The notes beneath the pieces are model-generated. The model was not told where the DNA came from. It ran no database searches and worked only from the letters and a program-made list of their open reading frames with translations. 64,000 nt of DNA from an uncultured Actinomycetes bacterium (GTDB taxonomy: Bacteria > Actinomycetota > Actinomycetes > S36-B12 > UBA5976): NCBI GenBank assembly GCA_903892635.1, contig CAITJH010000044.1:66108-130107 (forward strand), read 5' to 3'. The position numbers and the translations under genes are program-made. Below, piece by piece: positions 7,054 to 48,885 of this stretch (the first letter of the stretch is position 1; each line of letters begins with the position of its first letter).

Positions 7054-7066
7054 ACGACAAAACTAC

Positions 7067-7935: not shown

Positions 7936-7954
7936 AAGAATCTCGACGAGTTAA

Positions 7955-8119: not shown

Positions 8120-8172
8120 GTGCTTGCCTTTCGTTAGATAACTACGCGTTCACGTAACTATTTGTCTTACGG

Positions 8173-8246: not shown

Positions 8247-8275
8247 TTAAGTTCCGTGATTTCTCACGGCTCTCG

Positions 8276-8347
8276 AGCCCCCTGTCAGAATCGAACTGAC
8301 GACCTCTTCCTTACCAAGGAAGTGCGCTACCACTGTGCCAAGGGGGC
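8276..8347 (-). tRNA. tRNA-Thr (anticodon GGT)
   Basis: Reverse complement is GCCCCCTTGGCACAGTGGTAGCGCACTTCCTTGGTAAGGAAGAGGTCGTCAGTTCGATTCTGACAGGGGGCT. The anticodon loop is TTGGTAA. Confidence 0.85.
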
Positions 8348-8543
8348 ATTGAACTGATGCACAAAATACATAGTTCGGCTGAGATAGCGTACCGAATATT
8401 GGGCTTTTCCGTGAAATCGGCAGGTGCTGACGCTGACTCGAACCCTATTAAATCGGCAGTTCTGGCCCAGGCAATTCGCTCGCGGCTTTACTCGAGGAAT
8501 TCCTGCCAGCGCCAAGAACACTAGTTACGGCTACCGTTATTCC

Positions 8544-11646: not shown

Positions 11647-12885
11647 CTAAAGCGTTGGATTGCGTGCGTCGTAGTCCATAAATCGAGGGTGCCATTTGAT
11701 CAATGCGCCCATCAATGCAACGCACGCAATACCGCCAGAAATCACAGAGAACGCTTCGCCGGCTACCGCGGCAACGGCACCTGCTTCAAAATCGCCAAGA
11801 CGAGGACCGCCTGCGACTACGACAGTAAATACGCCTTGCAATCGGCCACGATATTCATCAGGCACTGCAGCTTGCAACATTGTCGTTCGATATAAAGCAC
11901 TGATGTTGTCGCCAGCTCCGGCTAGCGCCAGAAACAACAGACCTACCCACAGTTGATGCGTAAATCCGAATGCTGCAATTGCACAACCCCATCCGACAAT
12001 AGACCAAGTAATTGCTGCGCCTTGTTTATTAACGCGCGTTAAAGGTCCAGAGAAGATTGCAGAGATCGCTGCTCCAAATGCTGGTGCCGCAGTCAACATG
12101 CCAACACGAGCCGCGGTTGTTCCGATCGAATCGGAATACCACTCATGCGCGATTGCAGGGAAAAGGGCGCGAGGTAATCCAAAAACCATGGCGACAATGT
12201 CTGCATAGAACGTCATTTGGATATTGCGCTTGCCTTTAAGAAAAGCAAAGCCTTCTTTGACGCTTGCTAGACCAGGTCGAGCAGGTGCACCTTCCTGAGG
12301 AGGCAACGATGGTAGCGCCCACATCGCCCACACCATGACTAGATAAGCCAACACATCAACGAAGTATGCAGTCGCAACTTTTCCCGTGATGCCAATCAGG
12401 ATTCCACCCAAAAGTGGACCAGCAGTAAATCCGATATTCCACGACAGCATTGATAATGAATTCGCCGAAGCTAGGCGATCTTTGGGAACAATGCGAGGGA
12501 TGATTGACTGTCGTGCTGGATTGCCCGCTGCAAAAAATGATGATGCCATCGCAACCAACAAATAAAGCAGCAGAACTTCTTGATTACCACGGAGTGCCTG
12601 CGTCAATAACAGACCACTTGTCATTGTCATGCCCATTGCTGCGATCAACCCAATTTTTCGACGGTCATAAGTATCTGACATTGCCCCACCGAACAATCCC
12701 AAACTGACCAACGGAATGAGTTGGCACAGGCCAACGAGTCCAACCGCAAAAGATGAATGCGTGAGGTTATAGACCTGGATGCCAACTGCAACCGAAGTCA
12801 TCTGTTGGCCGATGTTGCTGATTGAAACGGCCGTAAAGAGTCGACGATACGCAGGGATCTCGCGTAGTGGCGAGAGGTCAATCAT
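11647..12885 (-). CDS. MFS transporter (EntS/YbdA-like 12-TM type)
   Basis: Hydrophobic 12-TM-like ORF with motif GAMSDTYDRRK. I prefer the start at MIDLSPLREIPAYRRLF (12885); the ORF track's 12945 is possible. Confidence 0.72.
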   Translation of the reverse strand: MIDLSPLREIPAYRRLFTAVSISNIGQQMTSVAVGIQVYNLTHSSFAVGLVGLCQLIPLVSLGLFGGAMSDTYDRRKIGLIAAMGMTMTSGLLLTQALRGNQEVLLLYLLVAMASSFFAAGNPARQSIIPRIVPKDRLASANSLSMLSWNIGFTAGPLLGGILIGITGKVATAYFVDVLAYLVMVWAMWALPSLPPQEGAPARPGLASVKEGFAFLKGKRNIQMTFYADIVAMVFGLPRALFPAIAHEWYSDSIGTTAARVGMLTAAPAFGAAISAIFSGPLTRVNKQGAAITWSIVGWGCAIAAFGFTHQLWVGLLFLALAGAGDNISALYRTTMLQAAVPDEYRGRLQGVFTVVVAGGPRLGDFEAGAVAAVAGEAFSVISGGIACVALMGALIKWHPRFMDYDARNPTL

Positions 12886-31802: not shown

Positions 31803-31829
31803 TTATCACTCGGGGGTTCCGAGTGCTAA
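31803..31829. promoter_or_regulatory. CIRCE operator (HrcA site) copy 1
   Basis: TTATCACTC-N9-GAGTGCTAA compared with consensus TTAGCACTC-N9-GAGTGCTAA. Lies upstream of groEL. Confidence 0.8.
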
Positions 31830-31837: not shown

Positions 31838-31864
31838 TTGGCACTCTCGGGGGGTGAGTGCAAA
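31838..31864. promoter_or_regulatory. CIRCE operator (HrcA site) copy 2
   Basis: TTGGCACTC-N9-GAGTGCAAA, 8 nt beyond copy 1. Confidence 0.75.
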
Positions 31865-31924
31865 TCGAGATCCCCAAGTGCCCCGAAAACTAAGGGTTTT
31901 TCACCTTCGGCGTACCTCAGGAGG

Positions 31925-34255
31925 CTAAGGGGTAACTGTCACCAAAGTGGTTTTGTTGAACGTGGCATATGTGGCGTCGCCGTTGTTATATGTCTGGATA
32001 GAGCAGACGCCTGGGGCTTTCGCCGCCGTGATCTTGTAACTAACAATCAATTTAGTTTTGACCGTCTTTTTGCCAACTTTGGCCTTAATCGTTTTCGCGG
32101 TTGATTTTGCTTTGCAGGCTCCACTTGCCACAACGTAGGTCTGGATTCCTTGGGCAGATTTAGCGGGCACTGTGATGGACTTTTTCTTCTTAACGGTTGA
32201 TGGAATCGTCATCGACTGCAACGGCTTTGTATCTACATTTGTCGATGGGCCAGACTCTCGTGGAGTTTCCACTTGCTCCTCGGAAGTTCCGGCTGAAACC
32301 TTTATGACGGAGCTAGTTAGATTTTGTGACGATTCGTTGCCATAAATATCTGTTGGCGGAATTGCGTCAGTACTTATGGCGGGATCCAGCGTCCAGCGAT
32401 AGCAATGATTTGGGGTTGCTGTAAAAATTTCATTGGAAGTTTGCTGGCCTTCAGATCTCCAAATTGAGTTGCAGCTACCGTCAGAAATTGTTGATACTTG
32501 CCTAATTGCAATTCCAGAACTAGCTAACCCATTTAAGTCGGACGCAGACCAGTTTGGTTGCAATCGAGTGGAAGTTGCCGTTAGATCGGAAACTGGACGT
32601 CGCCAGGTTAAAACCGGACCAATGGAATCTGTCACAAAATGAATGTGGTTAGACGCAGCAGATCGATATGTGTACGCATCTATTGCCACAACTTGTAAGT
32701 TAAATTCCGAATTGTCTGGGAGTCTAACCTCGAAAATGAATGCATTATTATCAACATCGCAGGAACCAGGATCCCCAAAATCGGGAAGTCCGCTGTCCAT
32801 GCATGGGTAGGAAGGAGCTCGTTCAAGAGTTAACAAAGTTGAACAAAGATCGAATTCCCCAAAATTAATCGAACACAAATAATCTGCAGTCAATGCGGTT
32901 TGGGAATTGCCCTGATCGTCCTGTTGCCGAATCAGAAATCTCTTAACTACTGAACCATCCGGACTTGATTCGTACAATTTTTCTAATCGAGGGCGACTAA
33001 CGACGGAAGTATGGATTGCTATATCTGAATTTACGGACAACGACCCTACGTATCCAGGCGTCGGTAAGTCAAGTAAAGCGTGAGCTGCAGCACCTCCGAA
33101 ATTAACAATCCCACCATCATTAGGCGAAAGACTTGTTACGGAGGAATATTCAAGGCTCGACGTGGCATCCCCTTGATGCACCTCGTATTGAAATGTAACT
33201 TCGTTTGTTTCACTTCCGGAAACGTATCTTGCGATTGCAGTACCTGAATCTAGTTGAACTTCCAGCTCAGGTGTCCCATCAACAGCAACTGGACGATTGA
33301 ACTTGACTCGAATCGCGATGGATTGGTCAGTTGAATATGAGCCATTTGGCATCGGCGAAGATACCTTCACTACAAAAGGATTTGAATTGCTTGGAATCAG
33401 ATACTTAACAATTACAATTCCTGAACCACCAGCGCTACCAGCCTGGCCGTTTCCACCCGCTCCTCCACCACCAGTATTTGCGGTTGCTGGCGACGGGATC
33501 CCCGAGCCAGTTATCCCCGTGGCTCCGCCGCCTGCGCCACCACTTCCAGGTTGAGCGTCAGCGCCAGAGCCACCGCCACCGCCACCAAAATATTTAGTGA
33601 TGCCGTCAAAATTTGATTGGAAGCCGTTAATTCCATTCGTTGGCGCTATGTTGAATTCAAACCAAACACCATTGCCGCCATTACCACCCGAGAGATTTCC
33701 ATGAGCGACCTCTCCGGCTCCACTTGAGCCACCGTTGTTTCCAGCGTCCCCGATTTTGCAGTATCCCGGGCCCAGGAAGTTGCAACCGTTCCCGCCAACA
33801 CCGCCCGGAGCTGTCACCGAGTCTGTCGTTGTTGAGATGGATGAATCACCACCGGAGGCACCGAGTTTGGTTACGTATGAAGGATCGCCATACGCGCCAC
33901 CCAAGCCGCCCAGTCCTACGGTGATATCAACGTTGCCCGAAACTGGAAGTCCTGAGACGATAGCGCCACCGCCACCACCGCCGCCACCGCCGCCATCTGC
34001 TCCACCGCCGCCACCGCCGCCAACAGCAAGTACATCAACGGAAGTCACGCCAGCGGGGACTTGCCACGTACAAGACTCGAGAAAATATCGAATAGCGAAA
34101 TACTGACCGTTTTCTTCTAATACACCATCCTTGGGCGAACAAGGATCGCTAGCTATTGCAACCGATGGTTGCAGACCAAGTGAAGAAATACTAAAAATTA
34201 GGCTTAAAACAATGACCAGCAATGAATTGCGTCGAAGATTCAATTTGCTAGTCAT
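31925..34255 (-). CDS. Secreted 776-aa protein: N-terminal glycine-rich domain (poly-Gly runs) plus Ig-like/beta-rich modules
   Basis: Sec signal peptide (..SVAIA/SD). Motif CTWQVPAGVTSVDVLAVGGGGGGGADGGGGGGGGGG, further GGxGG blocks, then beta-rich repeats and a Lys-rich C-terminus. Confidence 0.7.
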   Translation of the reverse strand: MTSKLNLRRNSLLVIVLSLIFSISSLGLQPSVAIASDPCSPKDGVLEENGQYFAIRYFLESCTWQVPAGVTSVDVLAVGGGGGGGADGGGGGGGGGGAIVSGLPVSGNVDITVGLGGLGGAYGDPSYVTKLGASGGDSSISTTTDSVTAPGGVGGNGCNFLGPGYCKIGDAGNNGGSSGAGEVAHGNLSGGNGGNGVWFEFNIAPTNGINGFQSNFDGITKYFGGGGGGSGADAQPGSGGAGGGATGITGSGIPSPATANTGGGGAGGNGQAGSAGGSGIVIVKYLIPSNSNPFVVKVSSPMPNGSYSTDQSIAIRVKFNRPVAVDGTPELEVQLDSGTAIARYVSGSETNEVTFQYEVHQGDATSSLEYSSVTSLSPNDGGIVNFGGAAAHALLDLPTPGYVGSLSVNSDIAIHTSVVSRPRLEKLYESSPDGSVVKRFLIRQQDDQGNSQTALTADYLCSINFGEFDLCSTLLTLERAPSYPCMDSGLPDFGDPGSCDVDNNAFIFEVRLPDNSEFNLQVVAIDAYTYRSAASNHIHFVTDSIGPVLTWRRPVSDLTATSTRLQPNWSASDLNGLASSGIAIRQVSTISDGSCNSIWRSEGQQTSNEIFTATPNHCYRWTLDPAISTDAIPPTDIYGNESSQNLTSSVIKVSAGTSEEQVETPRESGPSTNVDTKPLQSMTIPSTVKKKKSITVPAKSAQGIQTYVVASGACKAKSTAKTIKAKVGKKTVKTKLIVSYKITAAKAPGVCSIQTYNNGDATYATFNKTTLVTVTP

Positions 34256-34275
34256 TACGGTATTAATGCACTGAG

Positions 34276-34938
34276 TTAGAAAAGTTTGCCAAGAAATGGA
34301 ATTACGACAAGAACTTTTCCAATTACTGAGTCTGCTTTTACTTGTGCAAATCCAGCATCGGTCTGAAGTAACACATCTTCTTGGGCAATAGAGTTCACTC
34401 GGCCCAAGATATTTTGATTTGCCTCATCGCCAAATTTTGCAACGATTAACTGGTTCTCCGAGACGTCGCCGCCTGGTGCCGCAACAACAAGTGACGAATC
34501 TGCTGATCCAAATCCTGCGCTTGATCCGACGGTTGGGTGAACCAAGGTAAGCGGACTAACAATGAATGCAACCACAATCGACGCAATAACTAGCAGCGGT
34601 ATTACAAATGGACCGAAATTGAGCTGGCGTTTTTGCGCCTTGCGTCGCGCACTTCGCGAACTCATGTCGACATGGGCTGCACCAGTTTCATTTGCCGATT
34701 TCGCCGCTTCCGGTTGTGCGTCATTAGTAACACCTAGCAGGAGGCGAGTTGTTCTGGAATCTGGTCGTCCCGTGCCACGCCAAGTTGCAATTTCTACAAC
34801 TGAGCCTGCTGGGAGTTCTCCGACGAGGAGCTTTTGTCCGTCCGGAAGATCAATGACCAGAGGAGCTTTAGGATTCGAAACACCATCGTGAACTTTAATA
34901 CCCTCGAGATTTTCATTTTCCTCATTCACATAAATCAC
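34276..34938 (-). CDS. Bitopic membrane protein; ectodomain resembles a signal peptidase I fold without catalytic Ser/His motifs
   Basis: 220 aa, GTG start sharing one base with the upstream stop (TAGTG). One TM segment. The C-terminus LGRVNSI..EDVLLQTDAG..VIGKVLVVIPFLG parallels HRIIG..WIVQGDAN..IQGVVVGKIPGIG of the neighbouring peptidase. Confidence 0.45.
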   Translation of the reverse strand: MIYVNEENENLEGIKVHDGVSNPKAPLVIDLPDGQKLLVGELPAGSVVEIATWRGTGRPDSRTTRLLLGVTNDAQPEAAKSANETGAAHVDMSSRSARRKAQKRQLNFGPFVIPLLVIASIVVAFIVSPLTLVHPTVGSSAGFGSADSSLVVAAPGGDVSENQLIVAKFGDEANQNILGRVNSIAQEDVLLQTDAGFAQVKADSVIGKVLVVIPFLGKLF

Positions 34939-35813
34939 TACCCCGAAATTTCAAAGGCAACATCAGAAACCTGCAGAGATAAAACAGATCCAATCTGGCC
35001 ACGATTTATTGTGAGGATTCCCTCAGGTGAAGCTATCTGTCCTGTAGCGAATGTGATTGTGGAAAGCACAGTTGAAGTTGAGGATTTCAAAAGCAACAAA
35101 GTTAACGTCTGATTACTGCATGCCGCACTTACATTCTTCAAAAGAATCTGATCAACCTTGAAACTGAAGGATGCAAAGTCCCAATAAGACTTGAGTTCGA
35201 CTTTCACATTTTGGTCACACGCACCAATTGCAGCGCTACCTTGGCCGTTAGATATTCCTGAAGCTCCATCAATGCCATTTATGCCATCAATTCCATTTGC
35301 TCCCGGTGCTCCAGGTGATCCCGGTGCGCCGTTCTGGCCCGCAGGACCAGCTGGCCCAGCCGGACCTGGCGCGCCATCTGCTCCAATAACTCCATTTCCA
35401 GCTGTGTAAGTCCCGTCACCGGTTATTGCGGTGCCAGGCTGACCATCCGTAGAAGTATTGCCGCTGCCAAACATAAGTCCGCCATCGTTTCCAGTGGATC
35501 CATTCGTGGAACCTGTCGTTCCGTTACCTGAAGAGGTTCCGTTCGCGCCATTACTTCCAGCATTCCCATTGGAGATCCCGGTGCGGGAAAGACCGGTCAC
35601 ATTACTAACGGTTTTCCAGTCATTCGGAATAAATCCAAACATGCGAAGCAGAGAAAGGAATAACAAGAGAACAATGAGTCGAACCAATAGACGCACGAAC
35701 CAACGTACGTTTTCATCTTCCTCAACTAGAACTCGTCGGCCATCAGCAAAATATTTATATGTGACCGGCTTTTGTCCGATAAGCGAATACTTGATCTCTT
35801 CAAATAAGGTCAT
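34938..35813 (-). CDS. Membrane-anchored collagen-like (GXY repeat) protein with C-terminal beta domain
   Basis: 291 aa. N-terminal cytoplasmic segment plus one TM, then a Gly/Asn/Ser/Thr-rich linker. An uninterrupted run GADGAPGPAGPAGPAGQNGAPGSPGAPGANGIDGINGIDGASG gives about 14 GXY triplets. Confidence 0.75.
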   Translation of the reverse strand: MTLFEEIKYSLIGQKPVTYKYFADGRRVLVEEDENVRWFVRLLVRLIVLLLFLSLLRMFGFIPNDWKTVSNVTGLSRTGISNGNAGSNGANGTSSGNGTTGSTNGSTGNDGGLMFGSGNTSTDGQPGTAITGDGTYTAGNGVIGADGAPGPAGPAGPAGQNGAPGSPGAPGANGIDGINGIDGASGISNGQGSAAIGACDQNVKVELKSYWDFASFSFKVDQILLKNVSAACSNQTLTLLLLKSSTSTVLSTITFATGQIASPEGILTINRGQIGSVLSLQVSDVAFEISG

Positions 35814-36535
35814 GATTCTCGCCTAACTCCGTCAAGAACCAGCCAGCCGCCAAAAATTACTATTCCGAGAAGAACAAGTATTTGAGGTGTGAGTAATCTT
35901 CCGATACCTGGGATCTTGCCAACGACAACACCTTGGATTTCTGTCGCGGTAGGCCGCTGGGTATCGGGCGCTGGATTTGCGTCCCCTTGAACAATCCAAC
36001 CGTCATTCGCATTACCGCCAATAATGCGGTGCGAGAAATCGGCAACTTTGGTGCCATCAAATCTTGAGCCTGTGTAGACAACAACGTCACCAAGTTTTGG
36101 AGTCTTGATGGTGTCATTGACAACCATGATTAAATCTCCTGGGTTAATTGCAGGAACCATTGATCCAGTTAGAACAACGCGTGCAGAAAATGTTTTTGTC
36201 ACACCTGCCAACATGACTGCGCCCATGAGTATTACAAAAATAACTGCAGTGATTTGACCAAACCAATTTCTTTTTTCAATCTCAAGCTGGCCACCAATGA
36301 AAGTGGCTCCGCTTAAATATTCTTCAGCATTTATATCTCGTTCAATTAAACGAGGTTTATTTGTTTCAGTATCAACATCCATCAGGATGGAAAAGTCTTT
36401 TTCGCCTTCTAATCGAAGCGTGACAAGTACGCGCATTTCCGGATCAAGTTGCTCACCGTACGGGGTAAATGAAATGCCTACGAGCCCGTCACTGTTCGTG
36501 ACGGGCTCGCGAGTACTTGCCACGCTCGAGGCCAT
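35810..36535 (-). CDS. Signal peptidase I, ER/archaeal (S26B, SipW-like) type, with ~95-aa N-terminal cytoplasmic extension
   Basis: Catalytic Ser box LTGSMVPAINPGD, His box FSHRIIG and a GDAN box, with TM helices before and after the catalytic domain. An ATGA overlap couples it to the next gene. Confidence 0.78.
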   Translation of the reverse strand: MASSVASTREPVTNSDGLVGISFTPYGEQLDPEMRVLVTLRLEGEKDFSILMDVDTETNKPRLIERDINAEEYLSGATFIGGQLEIEKRNWFGQITAVIFVILMGAVMLAGVTKTFSARVVLTGSMVPAINPGDLIMVVNDTIKTPKLGDVVVYTGSRFDGTKVADFSHRIIGGNANDGWIVQGDANPAPDTQRPTATEIQGVVVGKIPGIGRLLTPQILVLLGIVIFGGWLVLDGVRRES

Positions 36536-36555
36536 AGGGATTACTTATTATTTAA

Positions 36556-37134
36556 TTAGGCGGTTTCGATAGTGATCTTAGAAAAAATTGACGCAAGATC
36601 CCCAGAATCAGCACTGGATGTCACGTGGGTTCCGCTCGGAATGATATCGAGAACTCCATCGGTTACCCCGCTACCAGCACCAAGTGCCTCAACACTTCCC
36701 GAAGCAAGATCAGTGAGGGTTCCGTCGTTGTTTAAAGTGAATCCATATTCATAAAGTACAGTTCCGCTGTTATCGCGGACTGCTACGCGGAATGTCTTGC
36801 CGCCGCAGAGATCGAGTATTGAGTCTGTATTAATTGTGGCGGGATCTGAATTTTCAATCTTTATGTGAGCCAAATTGAACTTATTGTCTGAAGAGTTGTA
36901 CTCGGCTACAGGTGTTACTTTTACAGCTGGCGCACATGCCGTGACAGTCGTTACACCTTGACCGAACTCAACAGGGCTTCCGCTGTTGATACCAATGTTG
37001 GCGGCAAATGTGGAACCGATTACTGGAGCAAGAGCCAGAATGGCAATTCCGACGTAGATACCCTTGCGCGACTTCTTCTTTGTGGTCTCGACAGCTTCGA
37101 TCGGTTGGTCGACAACTAGTGTGCGACGTGCCAT
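36556..37134 (-). CDS. Small exported protein, paralog A (SipW-dependent-type signal peptide; candidate fibre subunit)
   Basis: 192 aa with AGGGAG SD. Basic KKKSRK stretch plus hydrophobic core ending ..GSTFA/AN, as in TasA/camelysin GGGTFA. It shares the EFGQG box, two Cys and a C-terminal ITIETA with paralog B. Confidence 0.65.
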   Translation of the reverse strand: MARRTLVVDQPIEAVETTKKKSRKGIYVGIAILALAPVIGSTFAANIGINSGSPVEFGQGVTTVTACAPAVKVTPVAEYNSSDNKFNLAHIKIENSDPATINTDSILDLCGGKTFRVAVRDNSGTVLYEYGFTLNNDGTLTDLASGSVEALGAGSGVTDGVLDIIPSGTHVTSSADSGDLASIFSKITIETA

Positions 37135-37257
37135 TACTTACTCCCTATGTCCTGGTCAATCCCCCGTGGGATAAACCGTGTATTTCGTACTTACTGAATT
37201 TAATTTAGGGACTAAATTGAATTCAGTCAAGTTAAAATTACCTTATTAGGTAACGAT

Positions 37258-37767
37258 TTATGCTGTTTCTACCGTAACTCGCGCAATATCAATGGAATTT
37301 ATGGTTCCAGTGATTGGAACAGTGATTTGGTCTATGCCCCCAGGGCCGGAGACCTCTGTTGGCATGTAGGTGATGGCAGATCCATCACTCTTTAAATCAA
37401 GGGTGTTTCCATACGCATCAAGCGCCTTAATGGTCAAGGTTTTGTTCAGGCAAGCCGCAGTATCCAAATCGCCAAGTGTGATCGATGTGGCCCGGAAACT
37501 CGAGCTTGCATTGTCATAGGTGGTACCAATTTGAACCGTTATTGAGTTGTCGCAAACCATGGTGGCTTGGCTGCCCTGGCCAAATTCGATTGCATTGTTG
37601 GTATTTATAGCTATTGAGCTGGCAAAAGTGGTGCTCAAACTAGGCAAAAATGCCAGAAGCAATGCGCCAATCCACAACTTTCGAGGATTTTTGGCCCTGT
37701 TATTGGCCTTAACAGGTGCCGTAGGTCCGTCTAGGTATGCCGAAAGCGGAGTTGAGTGTCGTGCCAT
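37258..37767 (-). CDS. Small exported protein, paralog B (SipW-dependent-type signal peptide; candidate fibre subunit)
   Basis: 169 aa with AAGGGGAG SD. Signal peptide ends ..LSTTFA/SS. It carries IAINTNNAIEFGQG, two Cys and a C-terminal VTVETA. Confidence 0.65.
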   Translation of the reverse strand: MARHSTPLSAYLDGPTAPVKANNRAKNPRKLWIGALLLAFLPSLSTTFASSIAINTNNAIEFGQGSQATMVCDNSITVQIGTTYDNASSSFRATSITLGDLDTAACLNKTLTIKALDAYGNTLDLKSDGSAITYMPTEVSGPGGIDQITVPITGTINSIDIARVTVETA

Positions 37768-37888
37768 CTGAACTCCCCTTTCATCTAAAGGAAAAAATCA
37801 CTAAACTGAATTCAGTACATACCTACCCAAATGTACAGGAAATACCCATTTATTTACGAATTTTCAGTGCAGATGCCTAAGTCGAAAG

Positions 37889-39820
37889 GTGATTAAGCAG
37901 AAAATGCCTAACTCATTCCCTTTCAGGGCTAAATTCAGACATTCTGTACCATTTCGATTGCTTAACCAATCGTCGAAAACAAGATTTGTCTTCTCTGCGT
38001 TTACATCACTTGTGTTGGTGATCACCGGGATATTAATTAATCAGGGTATTTCGAGAGCGGATGCGCAAGTATCTTTTTCCTACTTCATTGATGCCCCATT
38101 GGTTCAGAATTCGTATCTATGGACTGAGTATGAAAATTCACAATCAACACACTTGGCGAGCTTTAACAACATTCCCAAGAACTCAAATTGTTCATTTGAT
38201 AATTTTGCCGGCGCAAGTATTTCAAATAACCCAGGTGGTCGGTGCTTTACTGACGACACTTCTAATTGGGGTGGAGCGACAACGTTGGGATCTAACGCCA
38301 CAGTTGGTGGTTACACAGGATCGCAATTTGGTGGCACTACCATGCACGGGGTAGTCGAGGGGACTGGTACAACAATTTCGTTCGATCAACCGCAAAGATA
38401 CTTCGGAATCTGGTGGAGTGCAGGAAGCTACGGTAACCAACTGGCTTTCTACAGTGGGGATAAAATGGTTGGATCCACCTCTGCCGATGAAGTAATGACG
38501 AGATTGTCCGACGAAAACGCCCAGTTTAGATCAAATGGAGGTAACCAATTCTCTCGTGATCTGTATTACGGACATCCTGGAAGTTACAGCACAACTGAAA
38601 TTAATGATTGGAACCAGATTGTCGAAATAACCGACACATCAAAACTGGAAGACGCCACAAATTTCTCAAAAGGTGAACTTGATCCTGGGGAACCGTTTAC
38701 CTACATTCATTTCTTCACAGACAACGACGTAACTTTTGACAAAGTAATTATGAGTGCACCTGGCAATGGCTTCGAATTCGACAACATTGTTGTTTCAGAT
38801 GAAGTTGGATTGCTTTCAAGTGTAAATCCAAGGTTAGTCCAGCAAGGAACAGTTCTTCTGCCTACCAAAGTGCAGTTTGATCCAAACGTAACTCAAGGAG
38901 GCACGGGTCAAGCGTTTTCACAATTTGAGAGTGCGCCGACAGTTTTACCTTATAACTGTCCTGATTACCCGACTAAGTGTGTTGAGAACAACATGGGTGG
39001 CTATCCAAATTTCATTGGTTGGAATACCGAGCCCGATGGTTCAGGTACACAATTTGGAACTTTTACCGATGAAGTGTACGGCTGGCAATATTTTGACCAA
39101 GAACTTCCATCGGCCACATACGACTTTGCAGCACCCGTAACTTTATACGCGCAATGGAGTTATCGCTTTAGTTTTATGTTAAACCCTTTTGATTACAGCA
39201 GTGCGTCTAGTACTCCGTACATAAATGTGCTTGCAGGAAGTAATCTCACTCTTCCCTCGCCGGCGCCGAGAGCTGGCTTTACATTTTCAGGATGGGCAAT
39301 TGACACCACTCCTTGGTATCGTCCCCCGAGCGAGGACGACTTGATTATCATTGGTCAACCTGGAGATGAGATTGCGTCTTCACAATATACCCAAGACAAC
39401 TACGCTAATTTTTATGAAATCTGGACCCAGGGGTCTACGCCAGTTACCAATCCAGCAATACAAGCAATTTCGTCAACGATCCCTGTTGACCCGAGAGTTT
39501 CGGTAGCTAGTATTCCTAGCCTTCCGGTAGACACCGCATCCTTTAACTTGTGCGTGGTTGAAGTTACGGATATGTCAGGTACCCAAGTGACCCAGTCAAG
39601 TGACCTTTCGTTTGAAACTTCACCCGCTACAAGTTCTACTGGAGTAATAAATATTTCGGCATCATCACCAATAGCTGCAAACGGATCTCGATATATTCGC
39701 ATAACCGTTTCAGACACCTCACTCCAAAACTGCGAAACTGGAAACTCGGTGACCATTGAATTAAGTCCACTTCAACTTGGTGCAGGAAATACCGTGACTG
39801 TTCCGATTGGAAGACAATGA
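37889..39820 (+). CDS. Large secreted protein with beta-sandwich N-domain and two B-repeat-like (..F.GW..) modules
   Basis: 643 aa with signal/anchor ..GISRADA. Motifs FGIWWSAGSYGNQLAFYSG, then FIGWNTEPDGSGTQFG and FTFSGWAID resembling Listeria-Bacteroides repeats. Start is GTG at 37889 or ATG at 37904. Confidence 0.6.
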   Translation: MIKQKMPNSFPFRAKFRHSVPFRLLNQSSKTRFVFSAFTSLVLVITGILINQGISRADAQVSFSYFIDAPLVQNSYLWTEYENSQSTHLASFNNIPKNSNCSFDNFAGASISNNPGGRCFTDDTSNWGGATTLGSNATVGGYTGSQFGGTTMHGVVEGTGTTISFDQPQRYFGIWWSAGSYGNQLAFYSGDKMVGSTSADEVMTRLSDENAQFRSNGGNQFSRDLYYGHPGSYSTTEINDWNQIVEITDTSKLEDATNFSKGELDPGEPFTYIHFFTDNDVTFDKVIMSAPGNGFEFDNIVVSDEVGLLSSVNPRLVQQGTVLLPTKVQFDPNVTQGGTGQAFSQFESAPTVLPYNCPDYPTKCVENNMGGYPNFIGWNTEPDGSGTQFGTFTDEVYGWQYFDQELPSATYDFAAPVTLYAQWSYRFSFMLNPFDYSSASSTPYINVLAGSNLTLPSPAPRAGFTFSGWAIDTTPWYRPPSEDDLIIIGQPGDEIASSQYTQDNYANFYEIWTQGSTPVTNPAIQAISSTIPVDPRVSVASIPSLPVDTASFNLCVVEVTDMSGTQVTQSSDLSFETSPATSSTGVINISASSPIAANGSRYIRITVSDTSLQNCETGNSVTIELSPLQLGAGNTVTVPIGRQ

Positions 39821-40028
39821 CATGAGTGGCGATGAATTGCAGCTAAATGGCAAGCTGCCTCCGGTGGTTCAGTATCTGGATGCCCTGACCCAATTGGTCG
39901 AAATGCATGCGGCAGGTTTGGAAGTTGTGAACCTGGCTCATCAAGAGATTATGAAATTATCGCAACGGCTTGATCAGGTTGTGCCGGAAGTATTCGAGCA
40001 GACAGTCAACAAATCTAAGCGGCCTTAA
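39807..40028 (+). CDS. Small (68-73 aa) predicted helical cytoplasmic protein, unknown function
   Basis: The ORF overlaps or abuts the stop of the 643-aa gene (alternative ATG at 39822) and ends 3 nt before the next start. No hydrophobic segment. Confidence 0.4.
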   Translation: MEDNDMSGDELQLNGKLPPVVQYLDALTQLVEMHAAGLEVVNLAHQEIMKLSQRLDQVVPEVFEQTVNKSKRP

Positions 40029-40030
40029 GA

Positions 40031-42079
40031 GTGAAGTCGCGATTAAGAAATGTTTTGTTAGCACTTGGGCTAACCTTTCTGATCTCGCCTGTTTCGACGG
40101 CTCATTCGGCTGATAAATCATTTACGTGCGCTAATAAGGTTTGTTCAATTACTTTTGATTCGAATCAACAATATGCGGACTGGATAGTTCCCGAGGATGT
40201 TTACGCACTTTCTCTCGATATCACGGGTGCACCTGGTGGAACTAGTGGAACTGGCAATGCATCGGGACCAGTAGGACGAGTTTATGGACTGTTAGATGTC
40301 ATTCCTGGAAGTAAAGTTCGATTCGCAGTCGGTGGCGCTGGCCAATCGGCACGACTTGGAAGTCGTGGTGGAACCAATCCAGTCGGTCACTTCGCTGGCG
40401 GTGGCGGCGGAATCGGTGCTTTCGCAAGTACTAGTGGTGGCGGTGGTGGTGCTGCGTCGGTCGTCTTCTATCGAAACCAAGTTCTCATCGCCGGAGGTGG
40501 AGGCGGAGGAAATGGCAGTGATGCAACCGGAGGAGGTGGCGGTGGTGCTGATGGTGGCGCAGCCGGAACTTTCTCTCCACAGAATCCAATTCACGGTGCA
40601 GCTGGTCGCAACTTACCTGGCGGAATGCAATCAGGCTTTATTGAAGCTGGCAATAGTTCAGCAGGAAAAATATTTGTTACCTACACAGATCCAAGGGTGA
40701 ATGTTGCTAAGAAAGATCAGTTCCTTTTACTAGGTGTGGCCGATCCGAGTCGACCACTTAGTGACCCACGTGGGATTGCAAACCTAGCCATTGCATCAGC
40801 AGCCATTGTTGGTGCAGTTGGCTCACGCCGAGATCATGACCACGTAACTGATAAAAAACAAGAAGGTCAAGTAGAAGATCTAGACACGGTAAGCACCGAC
40901 TATTTAGCTCGAAAGGAAAGCGGGCAAGGCTTTGGGGATCGACTGCCAATTTGGCGTTCCCCGTTATTAAACGGCTACCAAAATCGACTTTGGAAAATTG
41001 TTGATCGGGTAGACCATCGCACCCCACTGCTTACCCGACTATTTAATGACGGTGCATACCTACGCGCAAGCATTGGAAGTCTTGCATTCTTGCTACCTGC
41101 ATTCTCATTAGTCCTTGGAATTCAAACTGGGTTAACCGCTGGTTGGCGACTTACTCCCGATGCACAACTGGTTCTAATACTTGCGGTGATAGGTGTCTTT
41201 GATGCTTTTGCCGGCGCACTTGGCTTTCTCGCTCTCGCTTTAACGCTTGGTATCCGATTCAGTTTTATGCCACTTACTGCGATCGAGTACTTCATTGGGC
41301 TAGCCGCACTGGGATTGATTCCCACTTTGGCTGTTGGAGCATTCCGACCGTTTCGTCGAACTAAGTCAATAAGTCTCGCATCTTGGTGGGAGCGAATCAC
41401 AGATTTTGCAGTCATTCCGTTCTTTACAATTTGGTCGACTGCTTCACTAATCGGCGGACTAGCTATTCTCGCTCGGCACGAAACAAGCATTTCAAATAAT
41501 GCACAAAAGATTGCGTTGGCTATGGGTGGCGCATTCTTAGTGCGCCTTCTGATTGAAGAGTTTGTGTCTCATTTATTCCCACAACGACTAGGTCAAGACC
41601 ATCCAGTTGAACTTGATGACCCAAGTTTGGGGCATCAAATATTCTTAATAGTTCTCCGCACAATAACGTTTCTAGTCGTTGCAATTTCATTCCTAGGTAA
41701 TTGCTGGCAGGTTTGGGTTGCGACGCTCATAATGTTAATCCCGCAAATCGTTGGCTTAGTAAAAGACAACTTTCCTAATTTTCCAAATTTATGGCAGGTT
41801 ATGCCAGGTGGCGTTCCGGGTATTGCATTCAACATTGGAATTGGAACTGCGACGGCATATTTTCTGATTAAGTACCTAGGCGAAACAGAGCAAATGGCTA
41901 AGTTGGTTTTTGTTCTCGCACCGATTCCAGGGACCGCGATTGGATTAGTCAAAACTTTTGGTAGACATGCAATTGAGGGCGACGTTCGGTGGTACCGAAG
42001 ACCTCAAATTCGAATTTTCTACCGAATCATTGGACCGGTTATTTTTCTAGTGGTTCTGAAACTCACTCACTTTATTTAA
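40031..42079 (+). CDS. Glycine-rich ectodomain fused to polytopic (~8-10 TM) membrane domain
   Basis: 682 aa, GTG start, Sec signal ..STAHSA. It has DWIVPEDVYALSLDITGAPGG, then GGGGG/GGGGGG blocks as in the 776-aa protein. The C-terminal 350 aa are hydrophobic. Confidence 0.65.
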   Translation: MKSRLRNVLLALGLTFLISPVSTAHSADKSFTCANKVCSITFDSNQQYADWIVPEDVYALSLDITGAPGGTSGTGNASGPVGRVYGLLDVIPGSKVRFAVGGAGQSARLGSRGGTNPVGHFAGGGGGIGAFASTSGGGGGAASVVFYRNQVLIAGGGGGGNGSDATGGGGGGADGGAAGTFSPQNPIHGAAGRNLPGGMQSGFIEAGNSSAGKIFVTYTDPRVNVAKKDQFLLLGVADPSRPLSDPRGIANLAIASAAIVGAVGSRRDHDHVTDKKQEGQVEDLDTVSTDYLARKESGQGFGDRLPIWRSPLLNGYQNRLWKIVDRVDHRTPLLTRLFNDGAYLRASIGSLAFLLPAFSLVLGIQTGLTAGWRLTPDAQLVLILAVIGVFDAFAGALGFLALALTLGIRFSFMPLTAIEYFIGLAALGLIPTLAVGAFRPFRRTKSISLASWWERITDFAVIPFFTIWSTASLIGGLAILARHETSISNNAQKIALAMGGAFLVRLLIEEFVSHLFPQRLGQDHPVELDDPSLGHQIFLIVLRTITFLVVAISFLGNCWQVWVATLIMLIPQIVGLVKDNFPNFPNLWQVMPGGVPGIAFNIGIGTATAYFLIKYLGETEQMAKLVFVLAPIPGTAIGLVKTFGRHAIEGDVRWYRRPQIRIFYRIIGPVIFLVVLKLTHFI

Positions 42080-42813
42080 ATTTGATCGATTAGTCGATCA
42101 ATGTGATTCTTAACAATTTGTCGTTCCAAAATTCCGATTTCACGAGTCTTTCCAGAAGGTAAGTGACCCCCTGATTTCCAAACGGATAGTCCAAGAATCG
42201 ACCAGCCAATACTTGCGGCCATCGAAGCGTTAGCCACGTTTTTCAGAAGTTCCGTACGAGGAATATTTCCAGCCGTAAAGTTTGCTGGGGAGACACGATT
42301 CTTTTTTACATCGCCAACTAAAGTCATCAGTCGGGCCAGATTTAATTCCGAAAGATCTGTCATGCGCTCACGATGAACGTTTTCCACAACAGTCGAAACT
42401 TCCAAACTTGCAGTTGGGTAGTTCAGTACAGAACCCCAACCACGACCCTGTTCATTTCTATAAACATTTTCTTCCAACCATGCCCGCAGCCGAGCCTTTG
42501 GCTCTGGCTTGGCATTTTGCGTCGCCTGCCAGAGAAATTCCACATAGTTTTCATAGGCCAAGACGGTTGCCTCAGCTAACAATTCGTTTCTGCCACCAAA
42601 GTGATAGTTGATCAATGCCATGGAAATACCAAGAGCTTCGCAAACATGTCTTGCCTGAAAGCTAGATACACCTACCCGACTTACATCGTCGATAGTCACG
42701 CAAAGAACCTTCTCGCGCATGGAAAGTTCGCCTTCAAAGCCGAACTGGGACCAATAAAAATCGTCTAAAACTCGATTTTCATCGAGTTGTGAAACGATCT
42801 TTGGGCCCTCCAT
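42076..42813 (-). CDS. TetR-family transcriptional regulator
   Basis: HTH region VTIDDVSRVGVSSFQARHVCEALGISMALINYHFGGRNELL. 245 aa. Convergent with the 682-aa gene and overlaps it by 4 nt. Confidence 0.75.
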   Translation of the reverse strand: MEGPKIVSQLDENRVLDDFYWSQFGFEGELSMREKVLCVTIDDVSRVGVSSFQARHVCEALGISMALINYHFGGRNELLAEATVLAYENYVEFLWQATQNAKPEPKARLRAWLEENVYRNEQGRGWGSVLNYPTASLEVSTVVENVHRERMTDLSELNLARLMTLVGDVKKNRVSPANFTAGNIPRTELLKNVANASMAASIGWSILGLSVWKSGGHLPSGKTREIGILERQIVKNHIDRLIDQI

Positions 42814-42851
42814 ACCAATATTCTATCTCCGCACTAATTGACCAGAAAACC

Positions 42852-42985
42852 TGAGGGGACTGCTGAAGGTTTAGTTGACTAATTACTAGTGGAGTTTGGG
42901 CTCTGCTGGAAGGATGTTGACATGGCTAAAAGGTATCCGGCTGAGTTTCGGCGTGATGTGGTTGAGGTGGCTCGGCAGCGGGATT
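42852..42985 (+). mobile_element. IS3-family insertion sequence remnant (left end plus first ~20 codons of orfA)
   Basis: TGAGGGGACTGC... resembles an IS3-type terminal repeat. About 70 nt later, ATG at 42922 encodes MAKRYPAEFRRDVVEVARQR, typical of an IS3 OrfA N-terminus. Similarity then stops and the frame runs into the csp terminator. Confidence 0.55.
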
Positions 42986-43016
42986 TTCGCCATTGGCGAA
43001 GCCGCCAAATCTGCTT

Positions 43017-43058
43017 AAAAAATAAGTCAGCCCGAGAGAATCTCTCGGGCTGACTTAT
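43017..43058 (-). terminator. Intrinsic terminator of cspA
   Basis: Perfect 17-bp stem ATAAGTCAGCCCGAGAG / CTCTCGGGCTGACTTAT with a 3-nt loop, followed by a T6 run on the minus strand. Confidence 0.8.
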
Positions 43059-43072
43059 AAGTCTGATTGGAC

Positions 43073-43577: not shown

Positions 43578-43859
43578 TTAGCCACCAGCGACTGCAGGGA
43601 CGATTGAGATCTGGGCACCATCTGGTGTCGGCGTTGCTAGACCTTCTAAGAATCGAACATCATCGTCATTGATGTAGAAGTTGATGAAGCGACGCATTTC
43701 GCCAGTATCGCTCACAAGACGCTGCTTGATACCTGGGTATGACGCCTCAAGCGTGTCAATGACGCCGCCGAGTGTGGCCTCACCTGGTTCAACATCGACG
43801 TTAGCTTCACCACCGGTGTAAGTGCGAAGGATTGTTGGGATACGTACGGAGACACTCAT
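43578..43859 (-). CDS. MoaD/ThiS-family sulfur-carrier protein (C-terminal GG)
   Basis: 93 aa with a beta-grasp pattern, ending ..PAVAGG. Overlaps the stop of the upstream ThrC-like gene by 4 nt. Confidence 0.8.
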   Translation of the reverse strand: MSVSVRIPTILRTYTGGEANVDVEPGEATLGGVIDTLEASYPGIKQRLVSDTGEMRRFINFYINDDDVRFLEGLATPTPDGAQISIVPAVAGG

Positions 43860-45115
43860 TTGCCACTCGCAATCACTAGAGAAACGGAATCAACACTTGG
43901 TGCAATTGTTGCAGTAAAACCATCGCCTGTTGACACAGCATCGAGAGTTTTTAGTCCTTCACCGGTGTTGACGATGACGGTTTCGGCAGTTGGGTCGAGA
44001 AGTCCCTGAGCCAACAACTTGCGAGTAACTGCCACGGTCACGCCGCCAGCTGTCTCGGCAAAAATGCCCTCGGTTTCAGCCAGCAAGCGAATACCTTCAA
44101 TGACTTCCGCATCGGTCACGTCACCGATCGCACCGTTAGTGCGACGAACGGCATCAAGTGCATACGGGCCATCTGCAGGGTTTCCGATCGCAAGAGACTT
44201 GGCGATTGTGTTCGGTTTCACTGGACGAATGACATCTTGGCCATCCGCAAACGCAGTCGACACTGGATTGCAGCCAGTGGCTTGCGCACCAAATACTCGA
44301 TAGTTGTGTTCTTCGACAAGTCCCAGAGCGAGAAACTCGCGCCAGCCTCTATCAATCTTGGTGAGCAACGAACCCGAAGCAACCGGAATAACAACCTGAT
44401 CTGGCAAACGCCAGCCAAGTTGTTCGGCAATTTCGTAACCGACTGTCTTGGAACCTTCTGCGTAATACGGACGAAGGTTGACGTTAACAAAACCCCAATC
44501 GGCAGAAACTTCTTCGCCAATTAATTCGGAGCACAAACGATTCACATCGTCGTAGTTGCCATCGATGCCGATGACGAAACCGTTGTAAGCAGCAGTCGCC
44601 TGAATTTTGTGCGACTCAAGGTTTGACGGGACAAGTACAACTGAACGCTGACCGGCACGCGCAGCAGCGGCTGCCACTGCTTGCGCCAAGTTTCCAGTCG
44701 ATGCGCATGCAAGTGTTTTGAAGCCAAGTTGAATACCTGCCGTTTGAGCAACGGCAACGACGCGGTCCTTGAAGGAGTGCGTCGGATTGCCACTGTCATC
44801 TTTGACCCACAACTTGCCCGTGATGCCGAGCGCCTTGGCAAGATTGTCAGCTGGCTGCAACCGAGTCATACCCGGTGAAAGCGTGCGGGTTTCCGCAACG
44901 TTTGCTGGAACCGGCAAGAGCGGTGCGTATCGCCACAATGAAAGTGGGCCGGCTTGGATTTGTTCGCGAGTTACCGTGCCAAATTCATACGCAACTTCTA
45001 GTGGGCCAAAGCATTCCCAGCATGAGTAGTCGGCGCCTAGAGTCGCGTGTGCTCCACAAGCACGACAAACAAGATGAGTTGCGGCACCAAATGATGCGGC
45101 GGGGGTTTCAGACAT
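43856..45115 (-). CDS. Threonine-synthase-family PLP enzyme with N-terminal Zn ribbon (candidate sulfur-carrier-dependent homocysteine synthase)
   Basis: CRACG..CWEC zinc ribbon and PLP-lysine motif PTHSFKDR. 419 aa. It is coupled to the MoaD-like gene and sits behind a SAM-I riboswitch. Confidence 0.75.
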   Translation of the reverse strand: MSETPAASFGAATHLVCRACGAHATLGADYSCWECFGPLEVAYEFGTVTREQIQAGPLSLWRYAPLLPVPANVAETRTLSPGMTRLQPADNLAKALGITGKLWVKDDSGNPTHSFKDRVVAVAQTAGIQLGFKTLACASTGNLAQAVAAAAARAGQRSVVLVPSNLESHKIQATAAYNGFVIGIDGNYDDVNRLCSELIGEEVSADWGFVNVNLRPYYAEGSKTVGYEIAEQLGWRLPDQVVIPVASGSLLTKIDRGWREFLALGLVEEHNYRVFGAQATGCNPVSTAFADGQDVIRPVKPNTIAKSLAIGNPADGPYALDAVRRTNGAIGDVTDAEVIEGIRLLAETEGIFAETAGGVTVAVTRKLLAQGLLDPTAETVIVNTGEGLKTLDAVSTGDGFTATIAPSVDSVSLVIASGK

Positions 45116-45262
45116 AGCGTGAGCCTTTCGTCATCTGCCTTAGCGATTCAACATTGAATCTCTAAGCCGGAATTGGCACCGTGTTGCGCGGCCACGAATG
45201 GTTTCGCAATGGTTGCCGGGGCTTCAACGGGCCGGTCCCTCTGCCCCTCTGGATGAGGTGTT
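45116..45262 (-). ncRNA. SAM-I (S-box) riboswitch
   Basis: Minus strand reads CTCATCCAGAGGGGCAGAGGGACCGGCCCGTTGAAGCCCCGGCAACC...GGTGCCAATTCCGGCTTAG...CTAAGGCAGATGA, matching the conserved S-box core. The 3' strand of stem P1 abuts the SD GAAAGG of the ThrC-like gene. Confidence 0.88.
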
Positions 45263-48708: not shown

Positions 48709-48885
48709 CGCCCACCGTCTTCATTTAGAGCAATTTTCAAGATAATCCACTAGCTGTTTCACAGACATTTCCTACCAAGTCCGACCAGAATTGATCTATT
48801 GCCACACTGGCAATGCAGGGGCTGAAAAGCCGCTGACCTTTACTACGGATCGTTCGGCACGTACCTGCCGATGAAGGAGAACAAA

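Follow-up and report, generated by a model that had tools for sequence, protein, structure and literature searches.

A strain-variable island with a Sec11/SipW-type signal peptidase and a probable undescribed surface-fibre or surface-display system in Actinomycetota

Gene content and layout of the island

We analysed a stretch of 64,000 nucleotides (the window) from an uncultured freshwater Actinomycetes bacterium (assembly GCA_903892635.1, contig CAITJH010000044.1, positions 66,108 to 130,107), in which an accessory island of ten open reading frames (ORFs) lies between groEL and cspA and probably encodes an undescribed surface-fibre or surface-display system. Six ORFs on the minus strand, for proteins of 169, 192, 241, 291, 220 and 776 amino acids (aa), form a closely packed operon; the plus strand carries a 643-aa ORF, a small ORF and a 682-aa ORF, and a convergent 245-aa ORF completes the set (Table 1). 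An earlier note on this DNA, made from the sequence alone, had listed the ten ORFs with their overlaps and 20-nt gaps, and all were recovered at exactly those coordinates. Hydropathy upheld its reading of the proteins' topology, its remark that the block contains no housekeeping genes also held, and the locus carries no annotation. A scan for sigma-70 promoters and terminators returned no more candidates than shuffled sequences gave. The note had been unable to match the locus to any described system, and this, too, is borne out: Pfam, NCBIfam, PADLOC, PDB and the literature that was searched contain no description of the locus.

Table 1. Positions in the window of the island, its genes and its candidate regulatory elements
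Feature	Position	Strand	Basis
Island limits, between the groEL promoter/CIRCE region and the probable cspA terminator	31912..43066		blastn and GC content
776-aa secreted protein: Sec signal, Gly_rich_2, Ig-like region, Lys-rich C-terminus	31925..34255	-	PF21722
p220, bitopic accessory protein, 220 aa	34276..34938	-	Topology, alignments
Collagen-like protein, 291 aa	34938..35813	-	Pfam Collagen, hhalign
S26B (SipW/Sec11-type) signal peptidase, 241 aa	35810..36535	-	TIGR02228, motifs, SEC11A/C
s2, 192-aa FGQG-family paralogue, candidate minor/variable subunit	36556..37134	-	BLASTP against s1, E 5e-14
Second copy of the palindrome with one mismatch, ATTGAATTCAGT, within a stable hairpin of the s1-s2 spacer (123 nt)	37216..37227
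s1, 169-aa FGQG-family precursor, candidate major subunit	37258..37767	-	Logo, AlphaFold2 model, motif
Operator-like element in the divergent promoter region upstream of s1	37805..37840		Alignment of five cassettes
643-aa secreted protein with an Npun_F0296-type surface-protein domain	37889..39820	+	NF050191
p70, 68-aa soluble helical protein	39822..40028	+	Homologues start at MSGDELQ
p682: Sec signal, glycine-rich ectodomain, polytopic domain (about 9 transmembrane segments)	40031..42079	+	Hydropathy, homologues
TetR/AcrR-like regulator, 245 aa, candidate binder of the palindromes	42076..42813	-	Helix-turn-helix matches
Overlaps in the minus-strand operon, 4 nt and 1 nt (also two 20-nt gaps)	35810-35813; 34938	-

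The small exported proteins belong to a large family

The small exported proteins s1 and s2 had been taken for paralogues, a relation that BLASTP upholds, and they prove to be members of a large family, here called FGQG, many of whose proteins carry cargo domains and are encoded in arrays distant from any peptidase gene; this family had not been recognised in the earlier note. A word-indexed search found 21 relatives of s1, and an exhaustive profile search found 1,259 clusters at 50% identity with E <=1e-3 (577 with E <=1e-10); a profile search of 90%-identity clusters gave at least 2,213. All of the family's entries are labelled 'hypothetical' and have no precomputed Pfam domain, and the FGQG module gave no match in Pfam or NCBIfam, against which 69 members were run, nor any PDB sequence-profile match.

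A logo of 268 members begins with a Lys-rich N-tail and a transmembrane (TM) helix, followed by G-[ST]-T-[LF]-A-A-[SN]-I-x-[LI]-N-x-G-x-x-[VI]-E-F-G-Q-G-x3-T-A-A-C-D and, further on, a second invariant Cys; the cut is predicted at G-[ST]-T-[LF]-A↓A (the arrow marks the cleaved bond). Across these sequences F, G, Q, G, C and D are each conserved at 99-100%, and the positions of the cleavage motif T-x-A at 76-77%. The protein s1 has such a signal anchor, with predicted cleavage TTFA↓SS after Ala49, and mature s1 and s2 would have masses of about 12.4 and 15.0 kDa and acidic isoelectric points (pI) of 4.0-4.3 (4.05 for s1). The AlphaFold2 (AF2) monomer model of s1, built on a 17-sequence alignment, folds residues 66-169 into a beta-sandwich of about 100 residues and seven strands, at a predicted local distance difference test score (pLDDT) of about 88, and leaves the conserved segment, residues 42-69, unstructured (pLDDT <50). 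The secreted beta-sandwich that the earlier note had proposed to look for in the small proteins is present in the model, behind a signal anchor. A Foldseek match of this model in BFVD (E 5.6e-4) was discarded as meaningless, its root-mean-square deviation being 20.8 Å.

A further element is seen in residues 1-14 of the s1 orthologues, where a near-invariant cytoplasmic N-tail, STPLSAYLD (STPLSAYLDG in s1), lies well before the signal anchor. Such a tail is unusual for a Sec signal and may be a recognition tag for the conserved cytoplasmic domain of the peptidase or of p220.

Among the best 150 family representatives, about a third are longer proteins of 300-670 aa in which an N-terminal FGQG module is followed by a C-terminal domain of varied kind (Lcl_C, Laminin_G_3, RCC1, beta-propeller, PA14, LRR or periplasmic-binding). 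Genes for the long forms stand in tandem arrays of up to seven, and the peptidase is present in only 2 of 9 such loci of at least 15 kb; all short-form loci with enough flanking sequence include it. On five lake metagenome contigs (L034, at 2120-9857, L036, L039, L076 and L079) the arrays comprise four to seven long FGQG genes, each with a different C-terminal domain, and no signal peptidase was found within the 6-20 kb examined per locus.

A dedicated signal peptidase of the Sec11/SipW type

The third gene of the operon had been described as an ER/archaeal-type Ser-His signal peptidase, and this description stands. The protein passes the NCBIfam model TIGR02228 for archaeal-type signal peptidase I (56.4 bits, cut-off 51.85) and has the boxes GSMVP at 124 (Ser125), HRI at 169 (His169, in place of the bacterial Lys) and GDAN at 184, which are kept in all cassette homologues and align with the corresponding boxes of SEC11A. 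Among solved structures, human SEC11A/C are its closest relatives (E 1e-4). Two TM segments and a conserved cytoplasmic N-domain of 94 aa, which has no relation to the N-domain of p220, make up the rest. Against the Bacillus SipW equivalog NF046067 it scores 25.9 bits, below the cut-off of 190, and by these comparisons it is of the same subfamily type as SipW and not an orthologue.

At 90% identity the cassette proteins are singletons, on 1-8 contigs each, and the cluster of the peptidase occurs on 3 contigs, whereas the groEL cluster has 217 member sequences. This rarity argues against a general signal peptidase; the enzyme is an accessory gene product and is unlikely to serve as the general signal peptidase of the organism. 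No LepB-type peptidase turned up when the 64-kb window and the related loci were searched by motif.

The collagen-like protein carries the same domain

Overlapping the peptidase gene is the gene for a collagen-like protein, which, as the earlier note had claimed, is membrane-anchored: an N-in TM anchor is followed by a spacer rich in Gly, Asn, Ser and Thr and by 16 uninterrupted G-X-Y triplets (residues 141-188). It passes Pfam Collagen PF01391 (29.3 bits, cut-off 27.2), and G-X-Y repeats are also found in the homologue of locus L008. The C-terminus (residues 184-289) is homologous to the sandwich domain of the small proteins, a point that the note had missed; hhalign aligns the two at a probability of 97.6% (E 2.6e-12). 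This FGQG-type beta-sandwich lacks the N-terminal [VI]EF strand segment.

Accessory membrane proteins and variable large proteins

The bitopic protein p220 comprises an extremely well conserved cytoplasmic domain (PLVIDLPDGQK...WRG..PD.RT.RL), a single TM segment and an ectodomain of 85 aa; in Nanopelagicaceae it is encoded by two genes, p220N and p220C. A core of about 45 aa (PLVIDLPDGQK..VG..G..IE.A.WRG.G.PD.RT.RL.LG) is 66-68% identical between the two orders in which the cassette occurs. No other element of the system is as well conserved as this core, located at 34729-34880 in the window (residues ~20-70), at 6453-7130 in L008 and at 12754-13419 in L010; outside it, the cassette can be aligned between orders only by hidden Markov model. 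The N-domain has no relative in Pfam or PDB. Against the S26 catalytic domain the ectodomain gives a colinear but weak hhalign alignment (E 1.6e-4 to 3.5e-4, probability 24-37%), in which GSS pairs with GSM, a Gly with the catalytic His and IPFLG with IPGIG; the ectodomain could plausibly be a His-less S26-like fold, and p220 a dead peptidase paralogue. Of the earlier description of p220 as a peptidase-like bitopic protein without the catalytic boxes, the bitopic topology is upheld, while the kinship with peptidases is weakly supported.

The membrane domain of p682 has invariant Asp, Arg and Glu residues and no invariant Cys or His of transpeptidase type, and the protein is a core component of the cassette. 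The same domain occurs alone, or fused to RTX, Big_3_5 or Gly_rich_2, and the family is homologous to a 560-aa protein of the Nanopelagicaceae cassettes (hhalign probability 82%, E 1e-5). The ectodomain reaches 19.5 bits against ALK_LTK_GRD, below the cut-off of 24.5. An AF2 model of p682 has low confidence (pLDDT 58), its Foldseek matches to transporters were rejected as non-specific (TM-scores ~0.1), and a PDB profile search returned nothing. The gene for p70, most likely starting at the ATG at 39822, is translationally coupled to that of p682 and is kept in the cassettes ordered as in the window (W-type); p70 has no reliable family match.

The two largest secreted proteins are optional, variable cargo genes of the island. 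The 776-aa protein passes Gly_rich_2 (PF21722, 72.1 bits, cut-off 24.3), in line with its earlier description as a secreted glycine-rich protein; it is missing from the L004 cassette, and elsewhere proteins of 601-1800 aa take its place. The 643-aa protein, which matches NF050191 (65.8 bits, cut-off 29), is not found in the L002, L003 and L006 cassettes.

The cassette recurs in two orders and at several chromosomal sites

A core cassette of two or three small FGQG proteins, the S26B peptidase, the polytopic membrane protein, the collagen-like protein and the bitopic 220-aa protein recurs on about ten independent contigs from metagenome-assembled genomes (MAGs) of Nanopelagicales and Micrococcales, at no fewer than three chromosomal sites. 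In the W-type loci (L001, L002/L003, L004/L005 and L006) the order runs TetR gene, then, in the opposite sense, 682-aa gene, ~66-aa gene and an optional large secreted protein, and, diverging from these, small protein 1, small protein 2, peptidase, collagen-like protein, p220 and an optional large Gly-rich protein. A Microbacteriaceae MAG (L010) has a W-type cassette at 22-47% identity that lacks the ~66-aa gene and has a frameshifted collagen-like gene. In that locus the gene extends, at 11955-12751, over two overlapping frames (ORFs of 175 and 205 aa) in the G-X-Y repeat region, a split that reflects either a frameshift or an assembly error. In Nanopelagicales, represented by L008, L011, L058, L089, L094 and L096 (lake metagenome contigs and MAGs of Nanopelagicaceae and Planktophila), the FGQG genes are followed by those for the peptidase, the membrane protein, the collagen-like protein, p220N and p220C. 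A genome scan with narrow-pattern alignment recovered five species. Co-conservation across genomes, which the earlier note had proposed as a check, is thus found in the W-type loci, in L010 and in the Nanopelagicales loci, the gene order being the same within these sets.

The limits of the island in the window were set by blastn against a relative with an empty site (L016), with which homology stops at 43067 and restarts at 31911. L016, whose CspA is identical to that of the window, has between cspA and groEL a gene for a 254-aa membrane protein and no cassette. The exact CspA of the window is present on thousands of contigs (indexed in 2,604 blocks of the collection), and in ten long CspA-bearing contigs that were read, none of the cassette families was present. 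The site is occupied in relatives (L016 at 10260-11024; L013, L014, L015 and L020 at about 10250-11035) by a polytopic membrane protein of 254-260 aa without a Pfam family, of which blastn finds no trace in the window. In L004, an 8.6-kb cassette running from the TetR-like gene through p220 sits between a phosphoribosyltransferase gene and a VTT-domain gene, and these two genes are adjacent, with no cassette between them, in five other relatives; L002 and L006 have the cassette in a third chromosomal context. The locus is thus a strain-variable accessory island with demonstrable empty sites. Its GC content is 46.7%, against 50.3% in the rest of the window, and is the lowest among 213 equal-sized sliding windows, which agrees with the higher AT content that the earlier note had judged by eye.

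Exposed domains diverge faster than cytoplasmic ones

When the window was compared with four close cassettes, identity was high in the cytoplasmic N-domains of the peptidase (90-97%) and p220 (86-91%) and in the N-terminus and TM segment of the collagen-like protein (88-95%). The sandwich of s1 is 49-54% identical in three of these cassettes and 80% in L004, the C-domain of the collagen-like protein 42-45% in three and 71% in L004, and the sandwich of s2 only 22-29%. In both small proteins the N-terminal strand segment is more conserved than the sandwich body, at 71-88% in s1 (88% against 80% for the sandwich in L004) and 53-59% in s2. Diverging sandwiches joined to a conserved N-segment point to a surface-exposed, diversifying structure with a constrained element for assembly or processing, and the fast evolution of the exposed parts, in an island that varies between strains, is as would be expected for a structure that phages and grazers encounter.

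A conserved palindrome in the divergent promoter region

The convergent gene next to p682 encodes a TetR/AcrR-like protein that is 85-87% identical across the W-type cassettes. It scores 21.9 bits against TetR_N (PF00440, cut-off 24) and 30 bits for a BetI-type helix-turn-helix, and the BetI and RefZ NCBIfam models align with residues 33-119 (E 3e-7), with scores well short of their equivalog cut-offs. Upstream of s1, the perfect 12-bp palindrome ACTGAATTCAGT (37805-37816) is joined to GTACAT-N10-ATGTAC, and the operator-like block reads TGTACA-N11-ATGTACTGAATTCAGT. The palindrome is invariant in five cassettes, within a conserved block of about 45 bp whose flanking bases vary, and the exact 33-bp pattern is present in L001, L002, L003 and L006. 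With the second copy, in the spacer between s1 and s2, there are two matches to the palindrome where 0.24 are expected; the spacer hairpin has a predicted stability of -33.3 kcal/mol (z = -3.1). The TetR-like protein is the obvious choice as candidate binder of these palindromes.

Flanks of the island and other features of the window

The flanks are as the earlier note had described them, groEL with CIRCE elements (controlling inverted repeats of chaperone expression) on one side and cspA on the other. Upstream of groEL are two tandem CIRCE-like inverted repeats (31803-31829 and 31838-31864, with 1 and 2 mismatches to the consensus), and the last gene of the island ends 61 nt from them. Just downstream of cspA, at the island border, a perfect hairpin with a 17-bp stem is followed by a T-run (43022-43058, minus strand) and is probably the cspA terminator. 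An 'IS3 remnant' had been claimed next to cspA, and 42814-43072 contains no ORF of at least 60 aa.

Beyond cspA, a SAM (S-adenosylmethionine) riboswitch (45128-45259, minus strand, 74.9 bits) lies directly upstream of a gene for a PALP-family enzyme dependent on pyridoxal phosphate (43856-45115, 419 aa), which is followed by a ThiS/MoaD-like sulfur-carrier gene (43578-43859, 93 aa); the arrangement suggests a SAM-controlled, sulfur-carrier-dependent operon for Cys/Met or of Thr-synthase-like function. An msiK RNA motif (48829-48885, plus strand, 59.8 bits) is located downstream of a gene for a TrkA_N-domain membrane protein.

Comparison with known surface filaments

Dedicated signal peptidases are a feature of the TasA superfamily (TasA, AbpA, AbpX, Tafi, thread, CanA), whose loci encode major and minor subunits, tip proteins, a TIGR02228 peptidase, a DUF5305 bitopic accessory protein, anchors and regulators (bioRxiv 10.64898/2026.01.04.697558), and of which AbpX, AbpA, Tafi, thread and CanA form donor-strand filaments (bioRxiv 10.64898/2026.01.04.697558, PMC9245690, PMC12337348). 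The island follows this logic closely, variable tip or adhesin proteins included, and shares with AbpX-type systems the small acidic subunits with two Cys. The AbpX-linked peptidase is reported to have 10 TM segments and that of the island has 2; the accessory protein of AbpX-type systems is a DUF5305 protein, whereas p220, with its single TM segment, has no Pfam match to DUF5305; and the island also has the collagen-like paralogue and the glycine-rich proteins.

The tapA-sipW-tasA locus of Bacillus subtilis likewise encodes a dedicated Sec11/SipW-type S26B peptidase among its substrates. In both systems an accessory paralogue shares elements with the major subunit, and neither has an ATPase or a sortase. 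The differences are that the TasA subunit is a jelly roll of about 230 residues and the FGQG subunit a sandwich of about 100, and that the island, in an actinobacterial host, has in addition the polytopic membrane protein, p220, the collagen-like paralogue and p70. The earlier note had proposed a comparison of the small proteins with TasA, and kinship was not supported: they have no detectable sequence or fold relation to TasA, AbpX or camelysin, and only the layout of the cleavage site and N-terminus is similar. At the level of sequence, the anchors of TasA and of the FGQG proteins both end in G-x-T-aromatic/Leu-A↓A, ahead of a strand segment and a Gly turn. That layout is GSTLA↓A, about 12 residues and FGQG here, GGTWA↓A, 11 residues and FASG in TasA, and GLTYA↓Q, 13 residues and TGSL in AbpX. 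In the island the peptidase gene is adjacent, and the predicted cleavage motif G-[ST]-T-[LF]-A↓A precedes a conserved strand-like segment. Membership in the TasA/camelysin family (PF12389, Peptidase_M73) was rejected, with no support from Pfam, NCBIfam, hhalign or Foldseek, and no TasA-superfamily entry was among the top 50 PDB matches of s1 in Foldseek. We therefore treat the system as one that may work like the TasA superfamily, by analogy, its membership being undemonstrated.

BclA of Bacillus and Scl of streptococci form surface filaments from collagen-like chains that end in a globular domain. The island's collagen-like protein resembles them in having a G-X-Y stalk and a C-terminal beta-sandwich, and gives weak matches to NCBIfam SclA/SclB over the repeat region (25.6 bits, cut-off 325); the C-domains of BclA and Scl are C1q/TNF-like or Scl V, whereas that of the island is of the FGQG family, and the anchor here is an N-terminal TM helix, with no LPXTG motif. 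Sortase-dependent, Tad and type IV pili of Actinomycetota are also surface-appendage loci in flexible islands of freshwater members, Tad genes being found in flexible island GI2 of Planktophila (PMC12817590). Readings of the locus as a sortase or type IV pilus system were rejected: Pfam and NCBIfam revealed no sortase, prepilin peptidase, ATPase or class III signal, and none of the ten proteins has an LPXTG motif.

A model of the system and its alternatives

We consider it about an even call that the island encodes a self-contained system for processing and assembling surface proteins into a thin, non-covalent surface fibril. In such a fibril, s1, s2 and the FGQG proteins encoded elsewhere would be made with a Lys-rich N-tail and a signal anchor and exported by Sec, and the cassette peptidase would cleave them behind the invariant Ala in G-[ST]-T-[LF]-A↓A-[SN]-I, as the conservation of the motif suggests; in TasA (GGTWA↓A) and AbpX (GLTYA↓Q) the cleaved bond has the same place with respect to the anchor. 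Cleavage would free a conserved amphipathic N-segment, ASIxLN-xGx-VEFGQG, ahead of the disulfide-bearing sandwich of about 100 residues, and the freed segment could dock onto the sandwich of another subunit, which would make polymerisation independent of chaperones and ATP. The collagen-like protein, having the same sandwich and no N-segment, would be the base or an adaptor, its Gly-rich spacer and triple helix of 16 triplets being able, where anchored, to span the cell wall. FGQG members with C-terminal lectin, propeller or binding domains would be built in at the tip or as cargo. Accessory functions would fall to the polytopic membrane protein, to p70 and to p220, which may be a peptidase paralogue without catalytic activity, and the TetR-like protein would probably control both divergent units via the conserved palindromes. 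Export topology and dedicated cleavage follow from strong sequence logic, and polymerisation is the least secure step.

Support for this model comes from the co-conserved gene order, the type of the peptidase, the family signature, the N-terminal segment that is better conserved than the sandwich and disordered in the monomer model, the sandwich shared with the collagen-like protein, the long forms with cargo domains, the empty sites of the island and the precedent of the TasA, AbpA, AbpX and Tafi loci. The acidic mature subunits (pI 4.0-4.3) are also like those of AbpX-type filaments (bioRxiv 10.64898/2026.01.04.697558). Several results weigh against it. An hhalign comparison of the 69-sequence FGQG profile aligned only the signal region of AbpX (probability 9.8%; sequence from the supplement of bioRxiv 10.64898/2026.01.04.697558) and of TasA (probability 0.5%). 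Foldseek found no PDB match for the s1 model at E <=0.001 (best E 0.027), the matches being generic FN3/Ig folds, with FimA-like ones at a probability of <=0.25, and the NCBIfam models for SipW-cognate signals did not match the small proteins. The collagen-like protein of Nanopelagicaceae begins with an ordinary cleavable signal in place of an anchor, so the role as base is not universal, and the domain attached to the collagen might instead be a trimerisation module. Finally, most of the long-form arrays have no peptidase within 10 kb, and a general sorting or display system fits them as well as a fibre does.

Such a system, in which the FGQG module would be a sorting signal joined to a stalk or attachment domain and the dedicated peptidase and the polytopic membrane protein would process each protein and fix it singly to the envelope, is the alternative with most behind it, somewhat unlikely as we still judge it. 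By analogy with LPXTG/sortase or PEP-CTERM/exosortase, s1 and s2 would be coat proteins without cargo. The diverse C-terminal cargo in about a third of the best 150 representatives speaks for it, as do the long-form genes in arrays of three to seven, usually distant from the peptidase, which look like dispersed substrates of one machine; these arrays are explained equally well by both readings. The invariant charged residues of the polytopic protein look enzyme-like, and the domain of the 643-aa neighbour otherwise occurs in exosortase-dependent proteins. Yet the membrane protein lacks an invariant Cys or His of the transpeptidase type, neither LPXTG nor a C-terminal sorting motif is present, the peptidase always has two or three paralogues without cargo beside it, which is more typical of major and minor subunits, and an anchor-type paralogue on a collagen stalk is more typical of a base.

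The rapid diversification of the ectodomains beside conserved cytoplasmic parts, the strain-variable island, and the trimers that collagen implies, each presenting three sandwich domains, would also suit an S-layer-like coat, a two-dimensional layer of s1 and s2 on trimeric collagen-like stalks that shields small planktonic cells from grazers and phages. A 2009 paper by Tarao and colleagues, cited in PMC12817590, is reported to link surface structures of freshwater Actinobacteria to resistance against grazing. We hold this possibility to be quite improbable: subunits of about 12-15 kDa are very small for S-layer proteins, Pfam detects no SLH or other wall-binding domain, and the cassette is rare in the population, unlike a constitutive coat. 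That unrelated genes for secreted proteins came together by chance beside a spare signal peptidase, or that the locus is left over from a phage or a defence system, seems to us highly improbable. The two large proteins are indeed variable and optional, and the glycine-rich and collagen-like proteins do match tail-fibre PHROGs, but these matches cover only low-complexity Gly-rich and collagen stretches, and a reading as defence island or prophage was rejected, PADLOC giving no matches and IMG/VR contigs no relatives. A set of six to eight core genes keeps its arrangement in two orders of Actinomycetota at different chromosomal sites, a co-conservation that largely refutes a chance cluster.

Conclusions

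Nanopelagicales and related small Actinomycetota dominate freshwater bacterioplankton, and their flexible islands consist mostly of 'hypothetical proteins'. The surface structures of these bacteria are thought to decide their susceptibility to phages and grazers (PMC12817590). The cassette described here is widespread in the dominant freshwater Actinomycetota and groups at least six unannotated families in one module: the FGQG subunit, the polytopic membrane domain, the N- and C-domains of p220, the N-domain of the peptidase and p70. The FGQG signature, with more than 2,200 clusters at 90% identity, makes the substrates predictable genome-wide, and cultured Planktophila strains offer testable targets. 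Known from Bacillota and Archaea, the principle of a dedicated signal peptidase I with a self-assembling subunit would extend to Actinomycetota, where the subunit has another fold.

We suggest, tentatively and with more doubt than confidence, that the FGQG module represents an unrecognised class of Gram-positive filament, in which a pilin of about 100 residues, unrelated to TasA, sortase-dependent or type IV pilins, would be matured by a Sec11-type peptidase, set on a collagen-like base, assisted by two new membrane-protein families and used by Nanopelagicales and small Micrococcales, the most abundant bacteria of freshwater plankton, to display dozens of interchangeable adhesin or binding domains. 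Should the fibre model prove true, the system would be a new class of pilus; should the display model, it would be a new protein-sorting system.

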